From assembly GCA_963677495.2 (NCBI GenBank), contig CAXXOU010000001.1, positions 256,001-320,000 on the forward strand: a stretch of DNA of 64,000 nucleotides, read 5' to 3'. The stretch is from Candidatus Cloacimonadales bacterium (lineage in GTDB: Bacteria; Cloacimonadota; Cloacimonadia; Cloacimonadales; JAFGVF01). How positions within the stretch are numbered: the stretch's first letter is position 1; each line of letters starts with the position of its first letter. Positions 8,631-61,994 of the stretch are shown here, in pieces. The notes beneath the pieces were generated by a model. It had not been told where the DNA came from. It did no database searches and saw only the letters and a program-made list of their open reading frames with translations. A program made the translations under genes and the position numbers.

Positions 8631-8731
8631 CACAGTCACCCCACTGTTTTCCCACTGTGCACGCACTGTAAACCCAGTGAAACAGTGGGTTGGCAGTGCC
8701 TTCACAGTGCGTGCACAGTGCAGACACAGTG
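8631..8731. repeat. 11-bp-phased inverted array A (core CACTGT/ACAGTG)
   Basis: CACTGT-type cores at 8631, 8642, 8653, 8664, 8675; ACAGTG-type cores at 8682, 8693, 8704, 8715, 8726. Confidence 0.9.
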
Positions 8732-8781
8732 CGTCGGTGAACAGTGCAGTGAAAGGGAGTAATATGGGCAATAAATATAGC

Positions 8782-8948
8782 TAAGTTGTTGCAAAATGCT
8801 CTGTGTATGGCAATAGAAGCAGTCACCATTACGACCAACGGGAGTTCGGGGAATTGCGACTTCGAAGTATAATTACAATTCCCCAAGCTCGTAAACTCGC
8901 ACAGGTGACCGGAATTATCGTAAGTTATTGCAAATCACACTGTGTATG
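8782..8948. repeat. Palindromic REP-like element flanked by imperfect 28-bp direct repeats
   Basis: DRs at 8782-8809 and 8921-8948 (23/28 identical); inner GTCACC...GGTGAC ends; modules shared with 30541-30575 and 30664-30677. Confidence 0.65.
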
Positions 8949-8980
8949 TCTCCCTGAGAGGAATAAATGAACGATCTAAT

Positions 8981-9017
8981 AAAAAGGAGCACCTTAAGAT
9001 AGCTTAAAGTACTCCTT
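8981..9017 (-). terminator. Probable intrinsic terminator
   Basis: AAGGAG.AC.TTAAG...CTTAA.GT.CTCCTT stem with A-tract, downstream of the 9039-11240 gene. Confidence 0.65.
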
Positions 9018-9038
9018 GAGGAAATATAATGTTATATG

Positions 9039-11240
9039 CTATGGTTGATCACTAACCACAATCTTATAAAACATTCGATTTGCACTAGTCTGTCCGACAA
9101 TCTCACTCGTGTTTTGAGTAGTCATCAAGTATGTTTGCTCATTACAATCAAACTCTGGAGAATCAGATGCATAGATCTTATACCAGATACCATTGATCTC
9201 ATCATAGGTATTATTCTCGAAAGTACCAGTTGTTACTTCACTCCAGGCAAGCTGAAGATTGTTCCCTGACCGGTTCAAAGTAAACTGAGCAGGCAGATCA
9301 GGTGCAATATTATCAACTGAGTGACCAGATACAATATTTGATTGCCAGTAACCACTCATTCTGTGATGAATAACCTTGAAAGCTACATCATGTGTACCTG
9401 TTGAACTTGAATCTCTCAAAGTCGGTGCATTATAGATATACACATCGTTCATTAAAGCCGGAACAGCTGCTAAATAAGCCCAGTATTGACCATCAATCCT
9501 CCAGTAAACAGGCTCATTAGTTCTCTCTGCTTCACTAATAACCAGTTCAGGATTAGTATGAGATTGGAAATTGTTGTTTCTTGTCGATTCATCAAGACGC
9601 CAGACACTGTAAAAAGCATCAAACTCATATTGATTGTCTTCTAGACCACTACCCCACATTACTTGAACTAAGCGACCTTGATCGTAAGGGACATCATCGA
9701 CATGGATAATATTCGGTTTGGATTGGTTGTAGAAAGCATAACCAATATCAGCAATAGTCCCATCAAGATCATACATAGTTGGATCAGCAGCATCAATAAG
9801 AGGGGATTTTGTCGCATCCTCTATTGGGAAATTAGCCCAAGTTGGCAGATAATCTTCTCCGAAGAGGGGATCAGCATCAATACAGTTGTCTATGCTAATA
9901 ACTCCACCTTCACCTGCTCCCGGTAAATTTCCCAAGCCTTCAATAACGCTATTCAAAAGAGATGCGTCTAAGTGAGAATTAGAATAAAGCTCATAGAAAG
10001 CATCCTCACTGTTATATACAACGCTATTACTAAAAGTGAAACCTAACGGTGTGCTTGAAAATCCATATAATAAAAAATCTCTGCCATGATCATCACTATT
10101 ATTAGCAATAGTGACATAATCCATATCTAAATTGCAGTTACCATACATGTATGCAACTGCTGCATTCCAGGCATCATTACCCCAAAAAAGAGTATGGCTA
10201 ATATCAAGATCTGTATTATAAGCATAAATTGCTCCACCAGAGGTATAAGATGTATTATTTGTGAAGATACAGTCTTGTATTATTGCTCCTGAAACATAGA
10301 AGTATAAAGCTCCACCATTGTTACTGGCATAATTGTCATCAAAAACACAGTTCGTAAAGGTTACATCATTTGCTTCATAGGCATAAACAGCACCACCCAT
10401 CTCATTTGAGCCCATGTACATGCTTCCTGCTGAAAGATCATCGAAAAAACAATGATTAAAGACAACAGGATTATCATCTGTTCTTAATTCAATTCTACCT
10501 GTAGATCCGTAGTCTGGTGATCTACCAAATATAATTTGATTTTCTTCAGTTCCATTACAAATTAATGAGCCATTCACAATAAACTTTGCAGGCAGATCAA
10601 ACAGAACTGAGGCACCCTCTTCAATCGTGAGTGTTTCTCCATCAGGTACAACATGATCAATGTCTTCAATAATATGAGTTGAATTCGCACCCCAAGTTCC
10701 ATAGACTTCTTTATTATCTGCAGTAAGAACTACATCATCAAAATAGAGTCCATTTATATAGTTAGTATTACCATTAAAGAATAGTGCGATTCTTGTTGTC
10801 TCATACTGTAGATCACTATCTTGGATTACAAGGGAGTGATTTGAAGCCGCAATATCAGTAGAGGAAATCATCGTCCAAAGTGGACTCCAATTGACTCCAT
10901 CAGTTGATACAGCTATACCGAAGTTTACTTGAGCTTCAAAGTACATATCTAAAGAGAACTTGAAGCTAATTTCGAAATCAGCATAATGCGACAAATCCAT
11001 TTCAGGACTCATGAAGTACTGTGCTCCTTCAACTGCCGGTTGCCAATGTAGTTTTAGTTCGGGTGCTGTACCACCAGCATTATCTGTATTACTAAACTCC
11101 CAATTATGGTCTGAAATCGGACAATAACCGGACCAATCATTAGGCAATGCTGCCCCAGAGAAATCCTCATCAATTAATACTAGAGCTGATAAAACTACAA
11201 TTGAAAACAGACATAATAAAAGCATTAAAGCTTTTTTCAT
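9039..11240 (-). CDS. Secreted protein with right-handed beta-helix (GGA-rich) region and shared C-terminal domain
   Basis: Signal peptide ending VLSA; repeated FxxN...GGA(I/L/V)Y motifs; SPLIDAADP...ADIG motif. Confidence 0.8.
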   Translation of the reverse strand: MKKALMLLLCLFSIVVLSALVLIDEDFSGAALPNDWSGYCPISDHNWEFSNTDNAGGTAPELKLHWQPAVEGAQYFMSPEMDLSHYADFEISFKFSLDMYFEAQVNFGIAVSTDGVNWSPLWTMISSTDIAASNHSLVIQDSDLQYETTRIALFFNGNTNYINGLYFDDVVLTADNKEVYGTWGANSTHIIEDIDHVVPDGETLTIEEGASVLFDLPAKFIVNGSLICNGTEENQIIFGRSPDYGSTGRIELRTDDNPVVFNHCFFDDLSAGSMYMGSNEMGGAVYAYEANDVTFTNCVFDDNYASNNGGALYFYVSGAIIQDCIFTNNTSYTSGGAIYAYNTDLDISHTLFWGNDAWNAAVAYMYGNCNLDMDYVTIANNSDDHGRDFLLYGFSSTPLGFTFSNSVVYNSEDAFYELYSNSHLDASLLNSVIEGLGNLPGAGEGGVISIDNCIDADPLFGEDYLPTWANFPIEDATKSPLIDAADPTMYDLDGTIADIGYAFYNQSKPNIIHVDDVPYDQGRLVQVMWGSGLEDNQYEFDAFYSVWRLDESTRNNNFQSHTNPELVISEAERTNEPVYWRIDGQYWAYLAAVPALMNDVYIYNAPTLRDSSSTGTHDVAFKVIHHRMSGYWQSNIVSGHSVDNIAPDLPAQFTLNRSGNNLQLAWSEVTTGTFENNTYDEINGIWYKIYASDSPEFDCNEQTYLMTTQNTSEIVGQTSANRMFYKIVVSDQP

Positions 11241-11386
11241 TTCTTCCTCCTATATATAATACCTCTCCAATACATCGAACCAATGGAACAATACTTAGCC
11301 CTATCTAATTATATGTCAATGAATATTATCAGCAACAAATTGTTAAGACAAAGAAACATGCTTATCTGATTCCAGTGTCATTCCTT

Positions 11387-11469
11387 ACCACGGGTTGACC
11401 ACGCCCAAACCACGGGTTAACCACGGCTCTCGTGGTTTGGGCGTGGTTTACCCGTGGTTGTAGCGTGGT
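11387..11469. repeat. 11-bp-phased inverted array B (core ACCACG/CGTGGT)
   Basis: Exact ACCACG at 11387, 11398, 11409, 11420; exact CGTGGT at 11431, 11442, 11453, 11464. Confidence 0.95.
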
Positions 11470-11545
11470 AAAATACTTCGGATTTGACTCACAACGATTG
11501 TGTGGGGCAAGGATGAAAACTAGGGAATTGCGATTTTGGTTTTCA

Positions 11546-11590
11546 ATTAAAGAAGTCCGTTCTTCTTTCAGTCGGACAAACTCCTTTAAT
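11546..11590. repeat. Dispersed hairpin repeat, family H copy 1
   Basis: ATTAAAG-AAGTCCGTTCT...GTCGGACAAACTC-CTTTAAT; related to 28224-28276, 28404-28458, 30639-30694. Confidence 0.7.
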
Positions 11591-11655
11591 TGTTAAATGT
11601 TTTTGAAGCAGGACAAGACGTACCTACGCAGTTGGTGCACTCCATAAAAGGTAGA

Positions 11656-12399
11656 TTACTTATACTTTTTCAAATCGATCAAAGAAGATTTTATAACCGG
11701 ATCTTTAAATGCAATACTGTGTTGCTTCCAATCCGGCATAAATAACTCGATATATTGATAAAACTCTTTACTGTGGTTATGATGTTTGAAATGTGCGAGT
11801 TCGTGGATAATTATATATTCTATGCTCTTTAGAGGATAATGTAGGAGATATAGGGATAAAGTAATCTTATTTTTGAAAGGATAGCATGTCCCCCACTTTG
11901 ATTTATAGTCCTTAACTTGAACATATAAACCTTCAGGAACTAAATCAGGTATTCTCCTCTTAACATCTTTGTAAACATCAAAGATGTAGTGCTGATGTTC
12001 TTTAACAATATATTTCCATAAAACAATGTCACGATAAGCATCTAACATGGGATGATTTAAGTTGTTTACAGTAACTATAACTTTATTGTCTATGAGCTGT
12101 GCTTTATCAACATCCCCTTCTCTGATTTCGATTTCGTATCTCTTTCCTATTATCCAAATATATTTACCATGCTGTTTAGCAAGCCTTTTATCCCTATCAA
12201 TTCGACCTTCAATACCATCAAGCATCTTGCGGATTTTTGCATCATTTTGCTTAAGCACTTGTTGCACAAATTCGAGTGTCGATTTGTGGGGAATGCTTAT
12301 TCGAATCTCCCCTGACTTTTGGATTCTTAGATTGAGATTCTTAACCTTCTTACGAGTGATAGTAATAGGATAATCTTTATTATTATGTGTGAACTTCAT
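11656..12399 (-). CDS. YgjP/DUF45-like zinc metallo-hydrolase (M48-annotated family)
   Basis: KSKWGTC, YIIIHELAHFKHHNHSKEFY...PDWK. Confidence 0.9.
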   Translation of the reverse strand: MKFTHNNKDYPITITRKKVKNLNLRIQKSGEIRISIPHKSTLEFVQQVLKQNDAKIRKMLDGIEGRIDRDKRLAKQHGKYIWIIGKRYEIEIREGDVDKAQLIDNKVIVTVNNLNHPMLDAYRDIVLWKYIVKEHQHYIFDVYKDVKRRIPDLVPEGLYVQVKDYKSKWGTCYPFKNKITLSLYLLHYPLKSIEYIIIHELAHFKHHNHSKEFYQYIELFMPDWKQHSIAFKDPVIKSSLIDLKKYK

Positions 12400-12403
12400 A
12401 GTT

Positions 12404-12435
12404 AAAAAAATAAGCCGAACAACTGTCCGGCTTAT
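12404..12435 (-). terminator. Intrinsic terminator after rpsG
   Basis: ATAAGCCG...CGGCTTAT stem followed by a T-tract on the minus strand. Confidence 0.8.
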
Positions 12436-12452
12436 GTGAATATATTAGTGAT

Positions 12453-12923
12453 TTACCATCTAAGATGAGCAAATGCTTTGTTAGCATCAGCCATTTTATG
12501 AGTATCTTCACGTTTTTTGATAGTATTACCTTCTTTCTTGTAGCATGAGATAAGCTCAGCTGCAAGTTTTTGGTCCATTGACTTTTCAGAGCGGTTACGA
12601 GAGTAGCTGATAATCCAACGGAAAGCAATCGCTCTACCGTCTTTTTCAGAAACTTCCATAGGGATCTGATAGTTAGAACCACCAACACGACGAGAAACAA
12701 CTTTAACAAGAGGTCTAGCATTAGCAAGAGCTTGTTTGAACACTTCTAATGGATCTTCGCCTGTTTTTTCTCTAATAATATCTAAAGCACCATAAACGAT
12801 AGCTTCAGCTGTAGATTTTTTACCACTATACATAATACCGTTGATAAATTTAGAAAGAATTACATCATGATACTTAGGATCAGGGAGAATCTCTCTTTCC
12901 ATCGCTTTACGTCTTCTTGACAT
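12453..12923 (-). CDS. rpsG: 30S ribosomal protein S7
   Basis: PDPKY, GKKSTAE, SRRVGGSNYQIP, HKMADANKAFAH. Confidence 0.98.
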   Translation of the reverse strand: MSRRRKAMEREILPDPKYHDVILSKFINGIMYSGKKSTAEAIVYGALDIIREKTGEDPLEVFKQALANARPLVKVVSRRVGGSNYQIPMEVSEKDGRAIAFRWIISYSRNRSEKSMDQKLAAELISCYKKEGNTIKKREDTHKMADANKAFAHLRW

Positions 12924-12937
12924 CTAAATCTCCTTCC

Positions 12938-13312
12938 TTATTTCTTTGGACGCTTCGCACCATATTTGGAGCGAGAGTTCATTCTCTTGTCAACACCGGC
13001 ACAGTCAAGGGCGCCCCTAACAATGTGGTATCTAACACCCGGAAGGTCTTTTACACGACCACCACGAACGAGAACCATTGAATGCTCTTGTAAGTTATGG
13101 CCTTCACCAGGGATGTAAGCGGTTACTTCTATTCCATTCGACAAGCGAACACGGGCAACTTTTCTTAAAGCTGAGTTAGGTTTTTTAGGCGTAGTTGTAT
13201 AAACCCTAGTACATACACCACGTCTTTGAGGGCACTGCATAAGAGCTCTATTTTTCTTTTTCTTTATAACTCTTTTTCTGCCTTTTCTGACTAACTGATT
13301 AATTGTAGGCAC
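12938..13312 (-). CDS. rpsL: 30S ribosomal protein S12 (GTG start)
   Basis: [34 protein letters not shown]. Confidence 0.99.
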
Positions 13313-13322
13313 ATTTACTCCT

Positions 13323-16300
13323 TTATATAGTATCTAATAAATCATCGAGGGATTCCTCGTCCTCGACTTTGGTAAGTTCTTCTACCATTTGGCGAAGATT
13401 CATACCTTCTTCTACACCGGCTTTAATCTTACCGGTATAGTGCTTAGAACCGGTTCCCACAGGTATTCTATGACCAAGAATAATACTTTCTTTGAGTCCT
13501 TCAAGCTTATCCATTCTGCCTTCAATCGCAGCTTGGGAAAGCACCTTCGTTGTTTCTTGGAACGAAGCAGCAGATAGCCAACTATCTGTCAACAAAGAAG
13601 TTTTGGTTATACCTAAGAGGAGTGGTTCGAACGTGGCACCTTCGCCACCTCTTGTTTCAACTTCAGCATTTTCTTTCATTACAGCAGTCTTCTCTACAAC
13701 CTCACCTTCGAGGAAAAGAGTTTTGTTTGGATTAATGATTTTAACTTTCTTGAACATCTGGCGAATAATAACACCGATATGTTTATCATCAATCTTCACA
13801 CCCTGTTTTCTGTAGATTTCCTGAATCTCATTAAGGATAAGCGTTTGAGCAGCTTTAATACCCTTAACTCTAAGAACATCATGTGGATCAAGTGGTCCAT
13901 CAGAAAGAGCATCTCCACTCTCAACAATGTCACCTTGGTGAACAACGATACGTTTACCTGAAGGGATAACATACTTACGTCCAACAAGTGGCTGACCATC
14001 TTTAACTACATCATCATTACTATAGATTGATTCCTGGAAAGGCGGGATGTCAAACACATGACCTGATAAAGGTAATTTAGTGCTAACACTCTCACCATCT
14101 GTAACGATTATTTGCTGATCTACAGGAATATGATACTTATATTCCCTACCGGATTTAACAACTATATAGACATCCTGACCTTCTTCAGTCTTGTCACCGA
14201 AACGGATTTTACCATTTCTTTTTGAGATAATTGCATCATCCGGAACAACGAAAATCTTACGATTTCCATCTTCATCTACATTTCCGAGAATAACTTTACC
14301 ATCGATTGGCGAGAAAACACTACTGTTTGGAGTCACGAAAATATCACGACCTGTTTTCTTCAATCCACCAATTGTAATCTTACCATTAATCTCAGAAATA
14401 ACTGCTTTCTCTTTTGGCACACGTGCTTCAAAGAGATCCTGTACACGTGGTAGACCACCGGTAATATCGCGCTGTTTAACAGTAACACGAGATGTTTCAC
14501 CAAGCTTATGACCCTGGTAAATATAAGTACCATCTTCCACTTTAACGTTCAATCCGGTTGGAAGCGGAACAAGTGCTTCTGTACCATCTTCATCAACGAT
14601 TCTGAACTGTGGCTGAATCTTTCTATCTTTAGATTCAATGATAGTAATCTCTCTAAGTCCTGTTAGCTCATTAAACTCCTCTTTATATGTGAAGTCTTTA
14701 ACGAAGTTATCGTAATGGAGGATACCCTTAGCTGTACTAATAAGAGGATTATTATATGGATCCCAACTAAAGAGTTTAGTATCCTTTGCAATCTTCTGAT
14801 TGTCCTCTACATAAACTGTAGAAGCATATTCAACTTTATACTCTTCAAGAACATTTTCCGGATCATTTTCATCGATAAGCTGTATCTTACCAAGATGACT
14901 CACAGATATATGTTCACCTTCTTTGGTAGTTACTACGTTCATTCTATCAAACTTAGTAATACCATCGAAACCGGAACTAACTTCAGCTGTATCAATTTGA
15001 GTACTTGAAGCACCACCGATATGGAAGGTTCTAAGAGTAAGCTGAGTACCGGGTTCACCAATACTTTGAGCAGCGATAACACCAACCGGTTCACCGATTG
15101 TAACAGATTTTTGGGTTGCAAGGTTTCTGCCATAGCACTTAGCACAAACGCCTTTTTCACATTCGCAGGTTAATACAGATCGTACTTTCACAGAGATGAT
15201 ACCATGCTTTTCGATAATATGAGCCATATCATGGTCAATTTCTTGACCTGCAATAGCAATAATCTCATCAGTAACAGGATCATAAATGTCTTCAGCCGCG
15301 GTACGACCTTCGATCTTTTCAGCTAATGATTGGACAACTTCCTGCCCCTCTTTCAAAGCTACAATTTCAATACCATCGATTGTTCCACAATCTTCACTTG
15401 TGATAATTGAGTTCTGAGCAACGTCAACAAGACGTCTTGTCAGATAACCTGCATCGGCAGTTTTAAGAGCTGTATCCGCCAGACCTTTTCTAGCTCCGTG
15501 AGTGGAGATGAAATACTCAAGAACAGAGAGACCTTCTTTAAAGTTAGATTTAATTGGAGTTTCAATAACACCAATATCATCACTAGTACTTTTAGTAGGT
15601 TTATCCATCAGACCACGCATAGCACCAAGCTGCTTAATCTGGTCACGGCTTCCTCTTGCACCGGACTTATACATCATATAGATTGAGTTAAGTCCGTTTC
15701 TATCTTTTTCCAGGTCAGTCATAAGTTTTTCGGTAACTTCTTCAGTAGCTGATTTCCATTTATCAACTACACGCTGCATTCTCTCTTTCTCTGTAATAAT
15801 ACCTGAAAGATAGAGTTCCTGAATGCTCTTAACTTCAGCTTCTTTCTCAGAAAGAATCTCTCTCTTTGAATCTGGAACAACAATGTCTCCAAAACTGAAA
15901 GTCACACCGGCTCTTGTAGCATACTTGAAACCGGTTTCTTTTAAGCGATCTAGGAATTCGGCTGTTTCATACTGTCCAACAGAATGGAAACAAACCATAG
16001 CAAGCTCGTTAAGTCTACCTTTATTCAATACTTCATTCATGAATGGAACTTCATCAGGAAGGATAGTATTGAAGATAACTTTACCAACCGTAGTAATTAT
16101 ATATTTACCTTCTACTTTATATCTAATCCAAGTATGAAGATCAATGGTTCTTTCCATTGAAGCTTCACCTTTAACACTGCAAAACATCTCATCGTTATCA
16201 TACGCTGTTAAAACTTCATCAGCATCCTGGAATACAGGAAGTTTTGCATCTTCAGCTGGTTTTTCTCCTTCTTCTAATGTGAGGTAGTAAGAACCAAGAA

Positions 16301-17810: not shown

Positions 17811-17822
17811 TATTGCCTCCGA

Positions 17823-21605: not shown

Positions 21606-21662
21606 AAGTCGCTCCTTTAAATTCTTTGAAATGTTAAGAGATAGAGGTTTTTAAATACAACT

Positions 21663-21690
21663 GGAAGTGGATGTTAAAGCATCCACTTCC
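21663..21690 (-). terminator. Hairpin (terminator/attenuator) between rplL and rpoB
   Basis: GGAAGTGGATG-TTAAAG-CATCCACTTCC 11-bp stem. Confidence 0.7.
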
Positions 21691-21708
21691 TTAAAGTTAT
21701 GACTTGAA

Positions 21709-22086: not shown

Positions 22087-22125
22087 GGTTCCTCCACATA
22101 TTATCTTTTTTTGTTTTAATTTTTT

Positions 22126-22656: not shown

Positions 22657-22666
22657 CTGGACTCTC

Positions 22667-23371: not shown

Positions 23372-23402
23372 TCATACTCCTTCTAGAATATACTCCGCAG
23401 GT

Positions 23403-23828: not shown

Positions 23829-23849
23829 TATTCTACCTCATCTATTAAG

Positions 23850-24374: not shown

Positions 24375-24394
24375 ATATTAGGTTCCTGTTTTGC

Positions 24395-24748: not shown

Positions 24749-24757
24749 GTATAACCA

Positions 24758-27888: not shown

Positions 27889-28094
27889 TGTTCTTCATTT
27901 CCTTCAAATCAATTTTGATAGACAAATTTCATGCTGTCAAGATTATAAATTCCATTTCTTACCATATTACATAATTTCAATATTTCATTTCTTCCTATTC
28001 TAATGCTTCAATTTTTTATCTCTTTTTTCTCGCAAGTTTATGCCTCCCTCCCTTTAGCATCTCTTTACAAGAACTTCCTTGCACCGTTAAAAAT

Positions 28095-28169
28095 GTTATG
28101 CACACGATGTGGATAACTTTAGGGTTTCATAGGGAGGGTCTAGGGAGGCTAAAGGGAGGGACAAGCGAG
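28095..28169. repeat. Dispersed inverted repeat, left copy: paired DnaA boxes plus 11-bp-phased AGGGAG array C
   Basis: 28095-28159 equals the reverse complement of 36388-36452 at 64/65; TTATGCACA 28096-28104, TGTGGATAA 28108-28116; AGGGAG at 28131, 28142, 28153 and AGCGAG at 28164. Confidence 0.92.
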
Positions 28170-28272
28170 ATTCAAGGTTTTTGAAGCAGGACGTACCAGA
28201 CTTGTAACAGAAACGTAAAGAATTAAGGGAGATTGCTAAAAGCGGAACACAAGTGAAGCAATAGCGGACTTC

Positions 28273-31518: not shown

Positions 31519-32844
31519 ATGTTAATAAGATTTTCCTGTAAGAATATCCTTTCGTTCTACGAAGAGATAGATTTCCGACTCTTTCCGGGAGCCCCGAGAA
31601 AGAATAAGGATCATATTATCAAAACTCCGGGAAAGAACCCTAATGTGCTTAAGGCATGTCTAATCTATGGTGCAAACGCGTCAGGAAAATCTAACCTGGT
31701 TAAAGCTATTGATATTGGCAAAAGGTTCATCATAAGCGGACCTAAGAATCCTGCTATGGTTGCTCTCCCCCGCTTCAAGATGAAGAAGGGAGCAAATGAA
31801 GAAGACAGTTCCTTCGAATTCACATTTTTCGCAGGTGGACGTGTATACCTTTATGGCTTCATTGCCGGAACAACAGAGATTAAACAGGAATGGTGTTATC
31901 AGCTGATTGCTCGTAAGCCTAAACCATTGTTTCAACGAATCACTGAGAATGGCAGAACCAAAGTTGCTTTAGCTTTAAACATGAATGAAGAGAAACAAGT
32001 ATCATTTAATCAAGCTTTCTTGGAAACAGCAACAGCACCCTCTAAACTTGTGCTAACTACTATCATGCATAGCTTTGCTCCCAACTACTCCCATATTACC
32101 GGATGGTTTGCTTACAAACTCAAGATTATCTATCCTAATACAAAGTATCTCAACATGTTTAACATCCTCACAGACGAGGAGTTCTATAACTTCGTTAACA
32201 AGATGCTTTCCAAACTCGATACAGGTATTTCAAATCTAACTAAACGTACACTTGACTTTGATGATAACAGGGTCAATATTCCTCCTAAGATGAAAGATGA
32301 CATCCGTCGAAACATACGAGAAAAGGGTGTTATCCTTGTAAGAGGTGTTACATCACAACGAGAGCTTTACGCTGTTTCAATGCGTAATGGTATAATCAAA
32401 GCAGATAAGCTTGTGTTCTCACACCAGATTCCGGGTGAAGAGTTCATTGATTTTGATATTGGTGAAGAATCTGATGGTACAAGCCGTCTTCTTGACCTGC
32501 TTCCAACTCTATATGATCTTAAGAATAATGATTCTGTTTACATAATCGATGAGATTGAGCGCAGCCTGCATACTGTCCTAATTCGTGGACTCTTTAGAGA
32601 ATATTTCAACTTCCATGGTACGAATAGAAGTCAGCTAATCGCAACAACACATGACACTAATCTACTTGATTTAACCCTCTTTAGGCGTGATGAGTTTTGG
32701 TTTATCAAGAAGAACTATTTCCATACATCTGAGTTATACTCAATGGAGGAGTTCAAAGAAAGATTTGATAAGCGTATAGCCAGAGACTATCTCAGCGGTA
32801 GATATGGTGCTATCCCAGTAATTGAGCTGTTCAACGAGGAGTAG
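31519..32844 (+). CDS. AAA_21 family ATPase (RloA/AbiLi-like)
   Basis: IYGANASGKSN Walker A; ESDGT; IIDEIERSLH Walker B; QLIATTHD; YLSGRYGAIP. Confidence 0.9.
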   Translation: MLIRFSCKNILSFYEEIDFRLFPGAPRKNKDHIIKTPGKNPNVLKACLIYGANASGKSNLVKAIDIGKRFIISGPKNPAMVALPRFKMKKGANEEDSSFEFTFFAGGRVYLYGFIAGTTEIKQEWCYQLIARKPKPLFQRITENGRTKVALALNMNEEKQVSFNQAFLETATAPSKLVLTTIMHSFAPNYSHITGWFAYKLKIIYPNTKYLNMFNILTDEEFYNFVNKMLSKLDTGISNLTKRTLDFDDNRVNIPPKMKDDIRRNIREKGVILVRGVTSQRELYAVSMRNGIIKADKLVFSHQIPGEEFIDFDIGEESDGTSRLLDLLPTLYDLKNNDSVYIIDEIERSLHTVLIRGLFREYFNFHGTNRSQLIATTHDTNLLDLTLFRRDEFWFIKKNYFHTSELYSMEEFKERFDKRIARDYLSGRYGAIPVIELFNEE

Positions 32845-32846
32845 GG

Positions 32847-33488
32847 ATGCCATTCACACAACTACGTGAGATAAAACCATTCACTCACCCAAAGAAGCGA
32901 ACAACTAAGAAGATTATCATCTCCACAGAGGGTAGTAAAACTGAACCTGCCTACTTCAAAGCACTTGCTTCTCTTGTAAAAGAGAATATTTCTTTTATCT
33001 TCCTCGAACGTAATATCGAAGGACATTCTGCCCCTAAGTACATTGTTGGTTTGATTGATGAATATATTGAGAAAGAAGTAGCTGAGTTCGGTTCTCGCAA
33101 AGCCTTTGAACGCTATAACGATGAGTATTGGGTTGTGATTGATCAAGACAGTTGGACTGACCTACCCCGAATTGCACGTGAATGCAAACGAAAGGGATAC
33201 AATCTTGCTATTAGTAACCCCTGTTTTGAGCTATGGATTCTAATGCACTATATCCCTGAGCATCGATTAGCAGAGCTAAGATTATTGGAAGTGTATAAAG
33301 ATGTGCAACACCTTATGAAACAGTTTATGGGTGGATATAGTAAGAGCAGGTTCAACTTCTCTAAGTTGTTACCCAAACTGCAACACGCACTTCAGATGGC
33401 TGAGATAATGGAGTTAGATAGACAAAGTAGCCTACCGGGACCGGGTGAAACTAAGGTTCATCATCTTGTGAGGAAACTTACTGTCTAA
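32847..33488 (+). CDS. RloB family (TOPRIM-like, AbiLii-like) protein
   Basis: EGSKTEPAYF, WVVIDQD, SNPCFELWILMH; directly follows the AAA_21 ATPase. Confidence 0.9.
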   Translation: MPFTQLREIKPFTHPKKRTTKKIIISTEGSKTEPAYFKALASLVKENISFIFLERNIEGHSAPKYIVGLIDEYIEKEVAEFGSRKAFERYNDEYWVVIDQDSWTDLPRIARECKRKGYNLAISNPCFELWILMHYIPEHRLAELRLLEVYKDVQHLMKQFMGGYSKSRFNFSKLLPKLQHALQMAEIMELDRQSSLPGPGETKVHHLVRKLTV

Positions 33489-36038: not shown

Positions 36039-36387
36039 CTATGAATCTGTAACCTCTTATCTTACTTTGTTATGGGATTGAGCTGGGATTACACTATTAG
36101 TCAAGCACTTTCTTGTAGCTGCACCCTTTATATCATGCGAACTAAGGTCGATTCGAGTGATCCGGACAGTGTCAAAGGATTTACTTATGCATATCATGGT
36201 CTAAGTCCATCATCCCGATCGAATGAGGTTACGAACGAGTAGAGGGAACTCTCCGATAACTTTAGTCTCCCAACAAAAAAGAGCCACTCCCAAGCTCTCA
36301 ATGATTACAGTGAAACTTACTTTGTTATTATCAACCTAGGTACTTCTCTTTATCTAATCTTTACAAAACGCTTGAATCACGCTAGTT

Positions 36388-36452
36388 CCTCCCTATAGCC
36401 TCCCTAGACCCTCCCTATGAAACCCTAAAGTTATCCACATCGTGTGCATAAC
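36388..36452. repeat. Dispersed inverted repeat, right copy (CTCCCT array plus paired DnaA boxes)
   Basis: Reverse complement of 28095-28159; TTATCCACA 36431-36439, TGTGCATAA 36443-36451. Confidence 0.92.
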
Positions 36453-36643
36453 TTATTTAAAGGTGCAATAAAACTCTTATAAAGACAAAGTAAAGGGACC
36501 TAGCAGACTCATAATTCACGTGATAGATAACTAAGATAGTTAAAACAACAGACATTGTGTAACAACATAGATTAATCTACATTCACGCATAATCTTATTG
36601 ACAGGTGGAGTGGTGAAATTTTCCCTACAATCAGAGGAAAAAT

Positions 36644-38443: not shown

Positions 38444-38447
38444 ATTT

Positions 38448-46530: not shown

Positions 46531-46632
46531 CGGAAATCTTTCGCGACTTATTCGGGATTATCATGGGAATTCCACGGGCAAAGCCCCGAGAGATTCCCGT
46601 GTAAGTCCCGGGAGATTCCCGCGTGAGTCCCA
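46531..46632. repeat. 11-bp-phased inverted array D (core CGGGA/TCCCG)
   Basis: CGGGA-type cores at 46531, 46542, 46553, 46564, 46575; TCCCG-type cores at 46584, 46595, 46606, 46617, 46628. Confidence 0.88.
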
Positions 46633-47835: not shown

Positions 47836-47853
47836 CATCTATAAGGAGAGCTC

Positions 47854-54063: not shown

Positions 54064-54241
54064 AATTATGATAAATGATTGTTACATTCTTTATAAATAA
54101 TGGCAAGCTTTTTTTGAATTATTATATTTCAGTTCTTATATTTAATCTCAAACTAAGTTTTAAACTTTCTGAGTGTAGCCCTAAAGATACTGATATCAAT
54201 TAATTCTATACAAATATATTAGGACATGTACCTCTAAAAAG

Positions 54242-54269
54242 AAACAAGCCTATAAGAATAGGCTTGTTT
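54242..54269 (-). terminator. Intrinsic terminator between C25-like gene and NRPS
   Basis: AAACAAGCCTAT...ATAGGCTTGTTT perfect stem. Confidence 0.85.
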
Positions 54270-54288
54270 GAAGTTTAATTGTTTGTTC

Positions 54289-57200
54289 TTATTTACTAAT
54301 TATTGCGTTGCTCCTAGAAGAAGAAGATGCTACAACCTTGAAGAACTTACAACTATCTGAGTTAGTTGTATATGTATAAGTTGGTGATGTGACAGTGATA
54401 ATTGGTTGTCCCCAATCTGTTGCATATGGATCATCACTTGCATAGATTTTATATGAAGCAGCATTATCAACAGCATCCCAACTCAGAATAATTGTATTAC
54501 CTGATGAAACAGCAGTAACACTTACAGGTGTGTCTAATGCTGGTGTGTTTGTCACTGTTAGAGTAACAGGGATAACAACTGATCCATTATCGGGGTCATT
54601 AGAAGTTACAACAATATTCTTTGTGTAAACACCAAGGTCAAGATCTGTTGAATCAATACTGAACAGAACATTTTCAGGTGTACCAGGCTCTACAGTCCCA
54701 CTAGTAACTGTTGTAGTCAACCATTCCGGTATGCTGTTGTTTGATATTCTGATAGCAAGGTCATTAAGTCCGAAGGCAGTATAGTAACAGATTTGCAACC
54801 CATCAGTACCATCTGAGCTTTCAATTCCAATTGTGTAATCAGTATCGCTTCCTGTACTATCGTATTGGTAAACAATATCTCCATTAGGATAAAGAATTAC
54901 CTCAAACGTTTCATATCCACCTGATGAGTAGTAATGCCTTATGTTATCATACTGTACGATAAATCTATTATTAGCTGTATCATTATAATGATAGATTGTT
55001 CCTCCACCACCTGCACTTGCAGGACGTAAATCGTCCCAAAGAGGTGCAATAAAATTGTTTGGTGTTCTTGTATTAGGTATCTGATCATTTGAATAATCAT
55101 TAAGAGTAGTACTGAATGTAAGATAGCCATTAGAACATACATTGATACTGTTATATGTAGTACCGTAGAAATCGAACGAGAATGGTAGATTAACTGAAGT
55201 ACCTGCATCATCTCCTAGAGATAACGCTGTACCAACACCGGATATTTCAACCCAGTTGTAAGCAGGACCTCCTGCTTCACGACTGTCAATCCACTCATAA
55301 CCAAATGTATCAGGTCCTCCACTGTTTCTTCCTGTATCTTGGATTCCTAGTGAGTATGTAAGATTTCCAATACCTGTATTATTGATGGTAAGGTTAATAT
55401 CACTCTGATCATTAGGAAGAATACTAGTATCAACTTGTGTTTGTGCTATTGAGATATTAGGTAGTACACCCATACCGCTAACAGCTACTAAACTTACACC
55501 TCCGGCAGCATTATGATTAATAGAAATATCACCAACATATTGAGTAGTTGTTGTTGGAGTAAAAGCCACATTGAATGTTTCTGAACCCAAAGCTCCTACT
55601 GTAAAGTTGATTGTATTTCTTGTAGCTTGATATTTGTCACCTCTACCGGTATTTGTTACAGCAAATCCTAAAGGAGTTTGAATTGTACCTGTAAGTGCCA
55701 TTGTTCCATCATTAGAAATGTCAAACTGTAAGTTTTGAGTCCCACCCTGTACAACATCTCCAAAATCAAGGAGAGCAGGTGAAACAGAACAATCAGGATA
55801 TGGAGCAGTTAGTGGTGGGAAAGTGATATAATCAACCCATGCACAGTCTGATCCATTACTCTGAGAGCCATCTTTATAATAAGTCCAGTTGAATGTATGA
55901 GTACCCTGAGAAACAGAATATGTATGTAACTCCCAATCTGTAGAACCTGCCCATTGCTCTTGCAGGTTGCCATCAATATAGAAACGAAGGTAATCATAAT
56001 TAGCTTCAGAAGAAACTTTGCTATAGAAGCTAATATCTCCGGTTGTAGCTACTGTTTGAGTAGTCATTATCTGAGATGTTTGGCTATGTGAAATTGATCC
56101 GGATTGTATACAATATGTTCCTTCATAAGCGCCTAAAGGAGTGACATACCATTCTGCATCACCATCAAACTCCCAAGCCATGTTATTCAAGTTACCGGTC
56201 TCAAAATCTTCCATAATGATTCCTACACTTATACTGTAGTTTTCGCTAAAACTAACAGCAGGTGTTCCTGTGACATTTAGTTGCAAAAGAACCGCATGTC
56301 CAGCAGGTGTAGAGCTAGAAACTGTTACCTCAAACTCTGCAGTATATGATTCATTAAATGCCAGTGTGCCGATATTAATAGAGGTCTGGTTTAATGTTGC
56401 ATAAGCATCGGTTTCTGAAAGTGAAACTGATACATTACTAGCTGTTTCCATGCCCAGATTTACTATATCTACACTGAATGTTACGACATCACCAGCTTCA
56501 ATAAAAGGACTACCGGACTGGTTTACAGCAGTCTGATTTTGAGCAAGGACATTAGTTTCATAAACAAATTCAGGAGCTTCTGTAGTGATATATAACGCTG
56601 TATTATTACTAAGCTCAGCACATGAGGAAGGATAAGTATCATTAAATGTATACTCTAAACCAACGTGTTCGTCATGATTCTCAATACCAATTGTACAGTA
56701 TTCACCATGAACATTGTCAGTAGCATTATCTACATTGTTAAATGTCTGATATTGAAACTTGATTGGACAGTCATTTGTAGGAGTTGGATGATAAGTCTCA
56801 TCATAAATAATCACCTGGAAGGTTTCATCAATTCCTCTGTTATAGATTTCACAATTATCCCATTGAACAACATAATAATGTTCACTGCTGTTATAATAAG
56901 CGTATACACCACCACCGCTTGTTTCTAGATCATCCCAGAAAGGTGCAATCATTGGGCTTGGTCCAATTGGACCCGGGATTCTCCAGTTTCTAAATGTAAT
57001 CTGGTCAGTAACTCCACCACCAATCCAACCATTAGAACAAACTGTGATTTGGTTGTAAGACTCTCCGTACATCCTTAATGGGAATGGCATATTCACAACA
57101 ACTACTTCGTCTGAATTGTTACCAGTATCACTTATGTTTAAGCGATTTGCGCTTTGAGATACATCTACCCAGTTATACTCAGGAGCTAAACTGTATCGAG

Positions 57201-59868
57201 TGTCTCCCATATCATAAATATAATAGCCATAGCTGTCCGGGCCAAGTGGATCAACAGCAGAAGGTTGGCCGACTGTTACATTGAAAGGCATTACATGATT
57301 GAATACTAAAGAGTTTACTGCAACCGTTATCGGAGATACAGCTCCCGGTATGATTGTAGCATCTGCAGTAACCTGGAAAGTAACATCCGCAGTTCCATTG
57401 GCTGCAATTGCTCCAACGTTACTAAACTGCGTAGGGAATTGCAAGTTATCTTCAATAGATGAAATCGACATGTTCTGTCCGGCAAACGTATCATTACCAA
57501 TGTTTCTAAGTGTTACGGTAACGTCTGATGTTTGTCCCGGGAGAATCACGTCTGTGCCGGTTGTTTGGAAGACCCATGAATCAACAAGAATATTTGATGC
57601 TTCAACAGGAATTGAAAAAGTTCTTACAAAATCATCACCAATTGAATCTATATGTAATAAGAAATCTAATTCTTCCGGGAAGCATGCGTTTTCTAGTTGT
57701 ATGTAGAAGGCTGAACTGTTCGTTACAGTACTTCCAGATGTAATTGTCCCATATGACACTGAACTACCTACAGTGACATTGTCATTTAAAGCTTCGATTG
57801 TGCAGGTAGTCAAATCAAGATTAGCTGTACCGTTGTTTTGAAGTGATAGATATACTTGGGCATTATTACCCGGTTCCAAATGAGTGACAGTTGAAAGCCC
57901 TAGTCTCATTGAGATGTTTGATATATCTGCAGAGTATGTAGCATTGCCTAAAGCAAAACTACCAATATGGGGAGTGAAGCCTGGTTTAGTAACAGTTAAT
58001 GTAACAGAACCACTTACACCTTCAGTTATTGGCAAGTAGATTTCACCCATTGCATTTGTTAAACCTGTTGCAAAAACTTCATCATCACCTTTCAGTATTG
58101 TTACTCTCGCTCCTTCTAGGTCACCACTGGAAGAGCTTACATTTACAAGTATTTCGCCTGTTGTGGTTGAAACTATAGATGGATATGAAACTGTCATATC
58201 TTCAGGAGCACCTTTCCAAGCACGTAAACTTGGATCACCCATAAGATTACACATATGCATGAAGTTTGAAGCTGTTGCAGGCTGTGTTACACCATAGTTG
58301 GTCCAAAGATAGTTCTTACCGGTATTCAAAGCTTCTCCGATTGTCTCTACATCATCAACAAACAGACCTGATACAATACCACCATCAAGACAGTTATTAT
58401 AAGCTGTATGAGTTCCGGATGTGGACATACCGATTGCAGCAACACCACCCTTTGGTTGAGCTACTGAACCTGCTCTTAAGAACTCTTCTGTTCTTGCTGT
58501 GCTTGTATATGTTCCGGTATCACATGTTATAATGATACAGATTGGAGTCTTTGCAATATTATTAAGAGAAGATATATCTGAATTATAGAAACCACTCATA
58601 CCAATCCAACCACGATAATGAAAATACCCAACACCACTATTCAATGTTGAACTAACAGTTACACTTGATGGATCTGCACCATAAAGTTCAGTAAAGGTAA
58701 AATCGGAGCTGTAATCCTCCATAACGTCCTGCATGTATTCGTTTCCTGATATACATGAAATACCTGATGGATTAGTGTCACCAACCAAAAGAGTTGAATT
58801 CATCCACTGCTCAGCAGGGAATAATGCATCCTTTTCATAATTAATTATTTTGTTTACAATTACCGATAACTGAGCTTCTGATTCATAAGAAATTCTACCC
58901 ATGAACACATCTTCCAGTTCATCATCTCCACTTACAAGTGCATAGGGATGGTCTCCCGGTGCACTATAATAACTTATTGAATAGTATGGAAGCCCATATG
59001 TTCCACCTGTGTCACCTACCAGAACAAAGAAATCCGGTGGATTTGACCAAGTCTGATATGCGTTTTGAAGATAGTTACGAATAGATGTTGTAGTGCTACC
59101 TGCTTGACTTGTACTTGCGGTGTGAACTTCAAAACCTTGTTGATGTTTCCAATCTACTAAAGGCTTCAAATAAGTTGTATAGTTAAGCGAGTTATTATAA
59201 ACATAAAGAATACAAGGAGGATCATCGGTTCTACTTGTTCTTTGTGTGTAATTAAGAATATTTGTTGAATATACTTTTGTGAAGGCTGAAGAATGTGGTC
59301 TTTCAACTGTTAACTCATTTTCTCCACTCTCTCGAGTATTATATGTAAGATGAATTCTTCCTCTTTTTACTATATCCAGTTCTCCCGTATTTGAGTTAAA
59401 CCTAAAAGGATATACAGCGACAGGTACAACACGTACATCACGCCAAAGTGCTGCTGATGAGTGTTCGAAAGACTCTTCCGGATAGTATCCGCTCTGAGTA
59501 GAGAGTAACATCTCATCAGTCTCTTTTTCTTTGTATCTTTTGAGATTAATACCTTGTACTTGTTCTCTTTTAGATACTGTCATTTGTGCGTTGAATGTTC
59601 CTCTTGCAGGTAACTCAAGCATAGTTGAAAAGACTGGAACTTCAGGTAGTCCTACCTCACCGGTGAAGTTATCATTGTTGATTTTGATGCTTTGAACCCT
59701 AACACCATCTACGTTATCGTCTACAAGTTCGTATGCCGGTAATTCAAATTCAATCTCGACCCCTTGCGCATCGTCAGATATTACTCTAAACACATCTGAA
59801 TTGACAGCTGTCAACAAACCTGTTATTAAAAATAATAGAATTATAGCTATAACTCTTACATTATTCAT
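54289..59868 (-). CDS. Secreted gingipain-like (peptidase C25) multidomain protein
   Basis: Signal peptide; C25 propeptide (GLPEVP); WKHQQG, VLVGD, MGRIS, KIINYE, ITCDTG, NLMGDP; repeated GPDxxGY...IAPxWDDL domains. Confidence 0.88.
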   Translation of the reverse strand: MNNVRVIAIILLFLITGLLTAVNSDVFRVISDDAQGVEIEFELPAYELVDDNVDGVRVQSIKINNDNFTGEVGLPEVPVFSTMLELPARGTFNAQMTVSKREQVQGINLKRYKEKETDEMLLSTQSGYYPEESFEHSSAALWRDVRVVPVAVYPFRFNSNTGELDIVKRGRIHLTYNTRESGENELTVERPHSSAFTKVYSTNILNYTQRTSRTDDPPCILYVYNNSLNYTTYLKPLVDWKHQQGFEVHTASTSQAGSTTTSIRNYLQNAYQTWSNPPDFFVLVGDTGGTYGLPYYSISYYSAPGDHPYALVSGDDELEDVFMGRISYESEAQLSVIVNKIINYEKDALFPAEQWMNSTLLVGDTNPSGISCISGNEYMQDVMEDYSSDFTFTELYGADPSSVTVSSTLNSGVGYFHYRGWIGMSGFYNSDISSLNNIAKTPICIIITCDTGTYTSTARTEEFLRAGSVAQPKGGVAAIGMSTSGTHTAYNNCLDGGIVSGLFVDDVETIGEALNTGKNYLWTNYGVTQPATASNFMHMCNLMGDPSLRAWKGAPEDMTVSYPSIVSTTTGEILVNVSSSSGDLEGARVTILKGDDEVFATGLTNAMGEIYLPITEGVSGSVTLTVTKPGFTPHIGSFALGNATYSADISNISMRLGLSTVTHLEPGNNAQVYLSLQNNGTANLDLTTCTIEALNDNVTVGSSVSYGTITSGSTVTNSSAFYIQLENACFPEELDFLLHIDSIGDDFVRTFSIPVEASNILVDSWVFQTTGTDVILPGQTSDVTVTLRNIGNDTFAGQNMSISSIEDNLQFPTQFSNVGAIAANGTADVTFQVTADATIIPGAVSPITVAVNSLVFNHVMPFNVTVGQPSAVDPLGPDSYGYYIYDMGDTRYSLAPEYNWVDVSQSANRLNISDTGNNSDEVVVVNMPFPLRMYGESYNQITVCSNGWIGGGVTDQITFRNWRIPGPIGPSPMIAPFWDDLETSGGGVYAYYNSSEHYYVVQWDNCEIYNRGIDETFQVIIYDETYHPTPTNDCPIKFQYQTFNNVDNATDNVHGEYCTIGIENHDEHVGLEYTFNDTYPSSCAELSNNTALYITTEAPEFVYETNVLAQNQTAVNQSGSPFIEAGDVVTFSVDIVNLGMETASNVSVSLSETDAYATLNQTSINIGTLAFNESYTAEFEVTVSSSTPAGHAVLLQLNVTGTPAVSFSENYSISVGIIMEDFETGNLNNMAWEFDGDAEWYVTPLGAYEGTYCIQSGSISHSQTSQIMTTQTVATTGDISFYSKVSSEANYDYLRFYIDGNLQEQWAGSTDWELHTYSVSQGTHTFNWTYYKDGSQSNGSDCAWVDYITFPPLTAPYPDCSVSPALLDFGDVVQGGTQNLQFDISNDGTMALTGTIQTPLGFAVTNTGRGDKYQATRNTINFTVGALGSETFNVAFTPTTTTQYVGDISINHNAAGGVSLVAVSGMGVLPNISIAQTQVDTSILPNDQSDINLTINNTGIGNLTYSLGIQDTGRNSGGPDTFGYEWIDSREAGGPAYNWVEISGVGTALSLGDDAGTSVNLPFSFDFYGTTYNSINVCSNGYLTFSTTLNDYSNDQIPNTRTPNNFIAPLWDDLRPASAGGGGTIYHYNDTANNRFIVQYDNIRHYYSSGGYETFEVILYPNGDIVYQYDSTGSDTDYTIGIESSDGTDGLQICYYTAFGLNDLAIRISNNSIPEWLTTTVTSGTVEPGTPENVLFSIDSTDLDLGVYTKNIVVTSNDPDNGSVVIPVTLTVTNTPALDTPVSVTAVSSGNTIILSWDAVDNAASYKIYASDDPYATDWGQPIITVTSPTYTYTTNSDSCKFFKVVASSSSRSNAIISK

Positions 59869-60092
59869 TTATACCTCCATTTTTGATTACAAGTTGCTCA
59901 TCTTTGTTTATGCAATTTTTAAACCTTTGTTAGTTAACTTTTTAGAATGAGCAATATTTGCGTGTATTACACGATATTAGGTTAAATTGAGTGTCTACAA
60001 ATCTCTCATTTGAATCATAGAGCTCTATTAAATGTACAGATAGGATACAACTATATTGATTCTGTAAACACTGTTAACTATAAATACTCAAC

Positions 60093-61184
60093 CTACCATT
60101 CAATTTTGATTACATCAAAGATACTTTCCCCTATTGTCTGAAGAATCGGACCCTTAACAATTCTCTCCTCCCCCTTATGCTGAAACCTGAGAAAACTCTT
60201 ATGAAGTATAGTGTTACCACGTTTAACAAGGTTCATAGGATCGAATCCTGTGATAGTAACGTCATATAATTCTTCGCTTCTTTTATTTGTCTCAAAATCA
60301 TTAAACAATTGATCTGTTTCTATTGTATAAGCTAAAACTGCGTCACCTACTTTCTCTTTAAGATCATTTCCAAGTGATGGAATTATTGTGGAATCATCTA
60401 TATTCATTATTCCATGTATATAGTCGGATAAGAAACCTGAACGCACTTGATTTTTCCAATTCGGGCAGAACCTATCTGCTACTAGACAAAGCAACAATCC
60501 CTGATTGTACAAACTTAATCTTGTTTTCAAACAACATCGAACATCATGATAGCCCTCAATGAACTCATCAATCGGAACTGAAAAGGCATTAAGCATGTTC
60601 CAGACATTGTATTCAACATAAACAGCTGTTCCTTCAATTGATTCAATCCCTTTATCATAATCAATATTATCCCCAAACAAAGCTTTCCGCTCTTTTCTTA
60701 TACTGTAAAACTCCGTAACAAAATCACGAGCCTTATCCATATCTTCTACCACAACAGCTTTATAAAGTGCCTCACGTTCTAGTAATCTAAGCGATATACT
60801 CTGCTCAGTGATTTGATAGTTGATTCCCTTTATCTCATCAGCCCCTGAAAAGAAATCATTAGAGCTTTGAAAACAGTGGAACATCTCATGAACCATTAAA
60901 GACGCTATCTTCTCTGAACTTATTTTAGGGTTAAAAGTATTAATATTGCATATTGCGACTGGATTGTCATCAAGAATAATTGCAGTATTGCCCATAAATC
61001 TCTCATCAACATCTGCTTTAAAACAGTACCCTAAATCCTCAAAATCACCCTCAATTCCAGTGTTATCATTAATATAATAATGGTCTTCGTCATATAACGC
61101 GTACTTTGTTTGCTGAAATCCGGGCCAATAATCTTCACAATCTAATAACGCAATTAAATCACGAAGCTCTTTCATTCTTTGCAT
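60093..61184 (-). CDS. Hypothetical zinc metallopeptidase-like protein (HExxH...E)
   Basis: VHEMFHCFQ and ESIEGTAVYVE; start reassigned to ATG 61184 after GGAGG. Confidence 0.7.
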   Translation of the reverse strand: MQRMKELRDLIALLDCEDYWPGFQQTKYALYDEDHYYINDNTGIEGDFEDLGYCFKADVDERFMGNTAIILDDNPVAICNINTFNPKISSEKIASLMVHEMFHCFQSSNDFFSGADEIKGINYQITEQSISLRLLEREALYKAVVVEDMDKARDFVTEFYSIRKERKALFGDNIDYDKGIESIEGTAVYVEYNVWNMLNAFSVPIDEFIEGYHDVRCCLKTRLSLYNQGLLLCLVADRFCPNWKNQVRSGFLSDYIHGIMNIDDSTIIPSLGNDLKEKVGDAVLAYTIETDQLFNDFETNKRSEELYDVTITGFDPMNLVKRGNTILHKSFLRFQHKGEERIVKGPILQTIGESIFDVIKIEW

Positions 61185-61269
61185 AAAACCTCCACCGACA
61201 AAACTGTCACCAGAGTAATGTGACGGCAAGCATTTTGTTTCAATCTTTACACTATCCAAACGGACATCG

Positions 61270-61528
61270 TGAGCGAAGTGAATTTTTGTATTCAGCTTCG
61301 CTCAGAGTAACAATGTTAAGGGATTTGCATTTGCAATTCCGAGAACTCAACATGTCATCGTATATTGACACCAGAGTTAAAAAGAATAGTGTTAGTAAAA
61401 GGAAAATGGAAGGGATAAAGCTTGTTTTGTCATAGGAAAACACTGAAAGATTAGTCAATATTACAACAGACTTCCACTAAAGCTATCCGAGCGACCCGTT
61501 CAACTACGCTCAGGGTGACAAGGTTAAA
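61270..61528. repeat. Pair of REP-like hairpin repeats
   Basis: TTCAGCTTCGCTCAGAGTAACA (61291) and TTCAACTACGCTCAGGGTGACA (61499); TGAGCGAAG...CTTCGCTCA stem at 61270-61304. Confidence 0.6.
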
Positions 61529-61856
61529 GTTTTTTTTGCAATAGTGATTGTTCATATTTCAACAATCTCTTATTGCTCTATCATAATAATAAGTTCTAAA
61601 AGATGTTTCTCTACCCCTTTTCTCACCACTCTCTTATCTGTTTTCCCCAGTGATGCCCAAGAGACTCTTGGAAATAGAATCAGCATCTATGCCTTATTAT
61701 GATGGAGCAGTGAGAGTTTAAACATTGTTTGGTTTATCTTCACAAACTGATATTTATGGGCTTTTCTGTTCAAAAGTCTGGTAGAACCAGGTGCCATCCC
61801 TTGAATCACTTTTGGATTTCAGGCTTGTGTCCATTACTACTCTTATCCCCATCGCT

Positions 61857-61994
61857 TCTTTCAGCAGTAATTAGTGATATAAAACTGGTTTTATCCTGGG
61901 GATAGGTGGGTTAAATCTTGGTAATTAGGCCAAGAATAGGCCAAGTGTTTGCCAAGGGTTTACCAAGTGTCTACCAAGAATTACTGCTGAAAGA
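61857..61994. repeat. 11-bp-phased array E (core CCAAG/CTTGG) enclosed by perfect 16-bp inverted repeats
   Basis: Exact CCAAG at 61930, 61941, 61952, 61963, 61974; degenerate CTTGG arm at 61884, 61895, 61906, 61917; TCTTTCAGCAGTAATT 61857-61872 and AATTACTGCTGAAAGA 61979-61994. Confidence 0.9.

Follow-up and report, generated by a model that had tools for sequence, protein, structure and literature searches.

Arrays in the window and their families

The window, i.e. the whole 64,000-bp stretch of DNA analysed here, corresponds to C1:256001-320000 of G000, a 3.41-Mb genome (37% GC, four contigs, 99% complete) whose proteins have their look-alikes in Cloacimonadota. An Rfam scan at gathering score found five tRNAs in it and no match to any other RNA family. 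Its genes include an AAA_21 ATPase and RloB-like pair (31519-33488), possibly a defence module, a 1930-aa NRPS-like gene and a 1859-aa peptidase C25 gene (48271-59868), and a 733-aa beta-helix gene (9039-11240) bracketed by arrays A and B, on both sides of which the blocks collinear with the congener G001 come to an end.

Six arrays of short units repeated every 11 bp lie where a preliminary description of this DNA had placed them (Table 1). Array A carries CACTG at 8642, 8653 and 8664, CAGTG at 8675, and then a row from 8683 to 8727 in steps of 11. Array B consists of four CCACG units (11388-11421) and four CGTGG units (11431-11464). AGGGAG occurs in array C at 28131, 28142 and 28153, and in an opposite-strand copy at 36389, 36400 and 36411. 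Array D has CCCG units (46585-46618) and a degenerate CGGG arm, and array E has five CCAAG units (61930-61974) and a degenerate TGG arm. The pattern of four or five units followed by four or five reverse-complement units, ascribed earlier to four loci, is clean (4+4) in B and in no other array.

Table 1. Repeat elements of the window, and related genes and insertion sequences elsewhere in G000
Feature	Position	Strand	Remarks
Family A array (CACTG arm, then CAGTG arm, 11-bp lattice)	8631..8732	+	One of about 65-67 copies
Conserved right part of family A	8733..8808	+	Closes with a 27-bp end motif (8782-8808) holding one worn unit
REP-type hairpin module (CAGTCACC...GGTGAC) and second copy of the 27-bp motif	8809..8947	+	Second motif at 8921-8947
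Family B array (four CCACG, then four CGTGG)	11387..11469	+	One of about 40 copies
Family C element	28058..28200	-	Ends approximate; one of 36 copies
Second family C copy, opposite orientation	36350..36490	+	Ends approximate; box pair at 36431-36451
Family D array (worn CGGGA arm, then TCCCG arm)	46531..46632	+	One of 23 copies
Family E element (GCAGTAATT to AATTACTGC)	61864..61987	-	124-bp span; worn TGG arm and five CCAAG; one of 39 copies
Gene paired with family A	C4:1447755	+	Array some 0.8 kb before the gene, separated from it by other repeats; distance 231 bp in G001
Gene paired with family B	C4:453917	-	Array 469 bp upstream
Gene paired with family C	C1:523005	-	Array 1.18 kb before the gene, with intervening REP repeats; distance 192 bp in G002
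Gene paired with family D	C4:23771	+	Array 412 bp upstream
Genes paired with family E	C4:946602, C4:1498810	-, -	
IS3-type copies beside family E	C2:142625, C2:235206, C2:359505, C3:93495, C4:221018, C4:1237849		

The window arrays are gene-less copies of five out of about 15 dispersed repeat families, which together amount to 292 copies across G000 (A 67, B 40, E 39, C 36, F 24, O 24, D 23, G/J 12, H 8, and rarer ones). Their cores, described at first as locus-specific, are family-specific, each locus of the window being one of 23 to 67 copies; the idea of locus-specific operators was rejected. Similarly, the arrays at 28131 and 36389 do not form a linked inverted pair: they are merely two of the 36 copies of family C, which has no inverted arm of units.

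Scanning the 509 kb of intergenic DNA in G000 for a 5-mer present three times at period 11 yielded 232 loci, against 2, 1 and 0 in three dinucleotide shuffles; with four units, there were 142 loci against 0. Coding DNA contained nine loci by the same criterion, and other periods gave at most 10 (period 10, 7; period 12, 2), except for 7/14/21, which reflect a distinct class of heptamer repeats, and 22. The arrays are no assembly artefact: in contigs from four runs of one sample (X1), depth over array A was 849 compared with 8 to 13 in its flanks (about 65- to 100-fold), and its unique flanks match those contigs without differences. Array families also recur in three other genomes of the genus, as compared for family A.

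Anatomy and genomic position of the elements

An element is 150 to 200 bp long. In most families, a short sharp inverted repeat stands on each side, fading outward, and the span between the two is fixed: 124 bp in 27 of 30 copies of E, 122 in 22 of 26 of C, 128 in 10 of 12 of J and 152 in 13 of 18 of O. Some span variants step by 11 bp (124/113/135 in E, 122/111 in C, 128/117 in J, 152/163 in O) and others do not. Across copies, cores are 96% conserved and linkers 83% (119 core and 178 linker columns, p = 2e-18; anchor columns were excluded, as were the 9 of 239 copies less than 70% identical to their consensus). The earlier proposal that selection acts on core and phase is supported by the higher conservation of cores than of linkers, by a largely constant span and by those length variants that step by 11 bp. 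The arrays were also said to have geometry but no sequence in common. The lack of a common sequence is too strong a statement within the genus, where by our own reading units written on one strand follow a loose frame, C-N-C and then the family word.

Terminal inverted repeats, a trait of MITEs, are found in C, E, O, D and J as sharp inner repeats of 9 to 12 bp with fading outer parts; none is evident in family A. The C element at 28058..28200 combines such repeats with a back-to-back pair of TTATNCACA (28096-28116) and the AGGGAG array (28131-28169), and this pair is present in the elements of families C, O and G/J at large. In family A, 63 of 64 copies have at least one 27-bp end motif; there are one to four of these, with REP modules of the RAYT type between them. 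The module at 8809..8947 is of the type that flanks a Y1 gene at C3:76613. At 8782-8947 and in other family A copies, the result is a CRISPR-like layout in which 27-bp motifs alternate with differing REP modules of 110 to 125 bp in varying order. True RAYT-REP pairs exist separately in G000, with 14 Y1 genes that have REPs of their own, and these REPs pile up behind family A. Elements also join into composites (F-B, B-J, E-N, D-E). A further, unnamed repeat with a GAGTCTCTTGGGGCTC centre and D-like ends joins F and B in composite chains, at C1:10849 and at least seven other sites. A one-ended polarity, as in rolling-circle transposition, is inconsistent among families: common flanks run to the right in A and E and to the left in O and J.

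The elements fold as hairpins (z -2.7, -5.0 and -5.5 relative to shuffles), and the question arises whether they act as structured RNA or single-stranded DNA, bound in this folded form by the 150-aa protein described below. Eleven bp is also the pitch of the A-form, most families have terminal inverted repeats, and the outer arms of family C covary within copies (0.55 vs 0.48, p = 0.0005). However, no covariation was detected in E, O, D and J (p 0.15 to 0.76), the units of C and E are mostly unpaired, the tRNAs are the only Rfam matches of the window, and copies are found in both orientations relative to genes, so that we consider this scenario improbable. Among the roles first suggested for the arrays, register-shifting cruciforms find little support: in several families just one of the arms is strong, and covariation of the outer arms is seen in one of five families. 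The other two, a protein platform and a non-autonomous element, appear to be combined.

As to position, 116 of 290 elements are in divergent, 131 in co-directional and 43 in convergent gaps; a position upstream of a gene start, reported for all window arrays, therefore does not always hold genome-wide. Elements occupy 87 of 185 divergent, 111 of 421 co-directional and 31 of 99 convergent gaps. We compared synteny with 400 kb of the 3.1-Mb genome G001 (median protein identity 82%). Within the 318 kb of collinear blocks, G000 has no element, against 28.5 expected from genome density, an overestimate given that the blocks are gene-dense and that chaining breaks at indels above 150 bp. All 16 arrays of G001 fall within 15 gaps between blocks, 13 of which jump elsewhere or invert, and the matching block ends in G000 often carry another family. 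In 30 gene gaps conserved between the two genomes, neither has an element; no empty site was found in the 400 kb of G001, all elements being at synteny breaks, and by eye no target-site duplication was seen at the element ends inspected.

The preference for divergent gaps could reflect ordinary regulons, each paralog of the 150-aa family being a transcription factor whose operators control neighbouring genes, and an array upstream of the paralog's own gene would suit autoregulation. Yet copies are alike over 150 to 200 bp, beyond mere binding sites, the 30 conserved gaps are devoid of elements, and equivalent block ends bear different families in G000 and G001. We regard such regulons as very improbable.

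Two insertion sequences are found close to the elements. All six copies of an IS3-type element begin within about 45 bp of the CCAAG-side end of a family E array, in the same orientation, which suggests target selection by E or by a protein bound to it, and resembles the placement of IS1397 in REPs. The left ends of elements with IstA and IstB genes, which we take to be of the IS21 family, often lie inside arrays A or C or REP modules (17 sites in G000, e.g. C4:1307270, C3:198909 and C1:468378).

Pairing of array families with a family of 150-aa proteins

When the genes adjoining elements were clustered, a family of about 150-aa proteins emerged, with 22 paralogs in G000. It is found in 80 of 121 genomes of the phylum, at 1 to 30 copies each, and forms 366 clusters at 50% identity. 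Residues K2, G14, R33, Y72, L109 and L136 are near-invariant, and the median pI is 9.1. Searches of Pfam, PHROG and PDB sequences gave no match at cut-off; no HUH motif, His pair or acidic triad is conserved, and no resolvase-type match was obtained by Pfam, PDB sequence or fold search. DUF6266 (PF19781), considered as a candidate identity of the family, was rejected, as the genome has no match to its profile at E<=1. The AlphaFold model consists of three short beta-strands and five helices (pLDDT 96), and fold searches with models against viral and PDB libraries gave no match at E<=0.001. A wide VIA fold search, made with the first model only, gave no chain at Z>=5; its best match, which bears on a possible ribbon-helix-helix fold, was to the TraM N-domain (Z 4.0, rmsd 2.4, 49 residues). 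Among 128 proteins, there were three sub-threshold Pfam matches to the HMG-box (E 0.006 to 0.02) in circularly permuted order, residues 38-71 matching profile positions 17-52, 87-108 matching 4-25 and 82-114 matching 2-34; segment searches added just 2 weak matches in 55 and did not strengthen the signal. The homodimer prediction scored 0.03, and our search for longer fused forms found none, which is weak evidence.

In a tree of 67 family genes from 12 genomes, a period-11 array (score of at least 13 within 1.3 kb) by our count precedes 35 genes and follows 3. In a second set, where 800 bp were considered on each side, 12 of 20 genes had an array upstream, the one at -764 being doubtful, and 0 of 20 had one downstream. 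The background is 2.0 to 2.6% of 400-bp windows in G013 and G014. A less sensitive tool, which gave one pair in its positive control, detected 11-spaced pairs upstream of 4 of 26 further loci and downstream of 0 of 25. Most of the roughly 15 families also occur upstream of a 150-aa gene of their own. Each family of the window has at least one paired 'master' gene outside it (Table 1), and the rare families K (two copies), N and J also stand upstream of paralogs. No gene of G000, a genome 99% complete, is paired with family F (24 copies).

Array family tends to follow protein clade. For 15 of 22 genus-level genes, which we labelled ourselves by their nearest array, the label agrees with that of the closest protein relative (over 100,000 permutations, mean 0.87 and maximum 10), a congruence that linked inheritance of array and gene can produce without binding. 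The set leaves out array-less genes and five genes whose arrays fit no named family well, four congruent groups contain within-genome duplicates, and the F labels in G002 are based on the core word and not on BLAST. Across genomes, clades match for A (proteins 91% identical), E (94%), P (63%) and C (61%), and flanking genes mostly differ; the H/Q/G clade is a mismatch, with proteins 60 to 69% identical and different arrays. The pairing rule recurs with unrelated cores in G013, G014, G025 and G026. Random sampling of 200 kb in G014, which belongs to another family of bacteria, gave nine gene-less arrays of three families, each also present upstream of a paralog. G013, likewise of another bacterial family, served for a prospective test: two array families known at first from gene-less copies were predicted to accompany paralogs, and turned up 331 bp and 165 bp upstream of previously unexamined ones; a single match of this type is not improbable by itself, with about 40 copies per family and large gaps favoured by both partners. 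A related protein in G025 has the same TACGGTA array. The two O masters share an 822-bp block, 97% identical, from the left end of the array to 5 bp past the stop codon; judging from this block, array, promoter and gene were duplicated recently as one unit. In gene pairs of G013 and G002, the common block likewise starts at the array.

Array-less genes are numerous: in one clade of nine members, 8 are array-less, and so are the 4 genes sampled in G027 and those sampled in G004, G005 and G006. G004, with a single, array-less 150-aa gene, has almost no arrays within 100 kb of DNA. Heptamer arrays (44 intergenic loci at period 7 in G000) constitute a class of their own, and are often close to 150-aa genes of the array-less clade.

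Could the genes be mere neighbours? Y1 (RAYT) transposases, or else recombination, might have spread the arrays as REP- or MITE-like hairpins, with the 150-aa genes simply occupying the same repeat-rich gaps and being inherited with the adjacent array. The 14 Y1_Tnp matches in the genome are in keeping with this, as are the RAYT-type REP modules among the one to four 27-bp motifs closing family A, the hairpins and the composites. Moreover, within G000 there is no upstream enrichment, since control genes with large upstream gaps have arrays in 301 of 621 cases, versus 12 of 22 for family genes. However, Y1 genes are flanked by their own REPs, and an array lies within 1.5 kb of no more than 4 of the 14, so that they are not supported as the cognate partner of the arrays. 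Linkage alone also leaves unexplained the one-sided position, the separate family for each clade, its persistence as flanking genes change, and the same rule with unrelated cores in G013, G014, G025 and G026. Hitchhiking of this kind is in our opinion unlikely.

Another candidate reader is DnaA, as TTATNCACA is the DnaA box consensus, and in oriC consensus boxes anchor rows of low-affinity DnaA sites. The elements would then be oriC-like platforms serving as titration sites. In agreement with this, 130 of the 322 TTATNCACA boxes are in or near elements (C 68, O 47, G/J 11), and the units of B resemble the box. However, no perfect box was counted in A, B, D and F, the cores of G013 and G014 are unlike it, and the genome encodes a single DnaA_C protein, yet cores differ and follow the 150-aa paralogs. 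We consider the DnaA scenario highly improbable. A RAYT fused to DnaA_C was also considered and discarded, the DnaA_C domain being found in DnaA itself only.

Possible function and comparison with known systems

The explanation we favour, and hold to be somewhat probable, is that the window arrays are gene-less copies of the cis component of a two-part system. Each repeat family has as its partner a clade of small basic 150-aa proteins, which likely bind the core word of that family once per helical turn. The gene of such a protein carries upstream the array that is also dispersed as gene-less copies, and the cognate paralog would read the family word on one face of the helix, with one subunit per turn. 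It is probable within this scheme that binding is direct and cooperative, on a single face of double-stranded DNA, and that core and protein diverged in step, making paralogs specific for different arrays. The many array-less paralogs, the lack of a gene for family F in G000 and the equal frequency of arrays upstream of control genes in this genome speak against the scheme. The platform of the preliminary description would accordingly be modified in one respect: the cores are specific to families, and track paralogs of one protein family.

How such arrays spread is a more tentative matter. The bound array might be a handle by which gene-less arrays are copied to new intergenic sites, in the fashion of REP/REPIN. 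As neither an HUH motif nor an acidic triad is conserved in the 150-aa protein, the copying chemistry would come from another enzyme, either host recombination or one of the 14 Y1 HUH proteins. The dispersed copies would in turn be substrates for recombination, marking the junctions of synteny blocks.

Several known systems have some of these properties. Bacterial MITEs such as Correia, RUP and ERIC are short, non-coding, multi-copy and bounded by inverted repeats, as are the present elements; unlike them, our elements have fading ends, an internal lattice and a partner gene that is not a transposase, and no target-site duplication was seen. Iterons, parC/ParR and the low-affinity DnaA arrays of E. 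coli oriC are phased repeats beside the gene of a binding protein, with two opposed arms, present once per replicon. Phased repeats by the gene of a (here putative) binding protein and opposed arms are found here too, but in about 15 parallel families dispersed over the chromosome, and with a protein that has no Rep, ParR or DnaA match.

The likeness to REP/REPIN/BIME systems with RAYT (Y1 HUH) transposases (PMC3116915, PMC2817692 and PMC3733652) lies in the many gene-less intergenic copies, here hairpin-forming, in the one or two cognate small genes with the repeat, in fuzzy ends and in composite mosaics. The differences are that the cognate protein is not of the Y1/HUH type, that the array is on one side of the gene only (35/67 upstream vs 3/67 downstream), and that the element is a 150- to 200-bp lattice of 11-bp units, whereas a REP is a palindrome of 20 to 40 bp. 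According to PMC6188088, TnpA of IS1535 binds cooperatively over four 9-bp helically phased motifs, and IS607-family ends have, like the arrays, element-specific short direct motifs in helical phase. In contrast to IS607, we found no serine recombinase domain, no second end past the gene, and hundreds of gene-less copies. In having a cognate gene and many gene-less copies, the system resembles REP-RAYT; its phased motifs resemble those of IS607 ends or iterons.

A literature search, with subscription journals outside its coverage, found no description of the arrays or of the 150-aa protein, and the pairing of array families with protein clades is new here. Taken further, it is conceivable, though doubtful, that a new class of selfish or genome-organising system is involved, in which DNA binders of a new fold (possibly permuted HMG-like), present phylum-wide, are orthogonal readers, each with its own 11-bp lattice code, that spread arrays to dozens of sites as platforms directing rearrangement and IS landing. 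If true, aligned pairs of protein and core would represent a natural recognition code, and the natural sets of paralogs and core words could serve to derive such a code for DNA binders that are small and cooperative. The repeats, so far unexplained as a class, would become a testable protein-DNA system with named cognate pairs, and a likely function would be at hand for the 150-aa family, hypothetical proteins of no recognised fold that number 366 clusters at 50% identity and up to 30 copies in a genome. As markers of synteny junctions, the arrays would also bear on why gene order is so scrambled in Cloacimonadota.

Finally, a promoter-like motif recurs upstream of the 150-aa genes (e.g. L046, L058, L163, L170 and L176): two TTT(G/T)TCAC-like words are spaced 19 to 20 bp apart, and the motif continues with TATA-n-GAGG.
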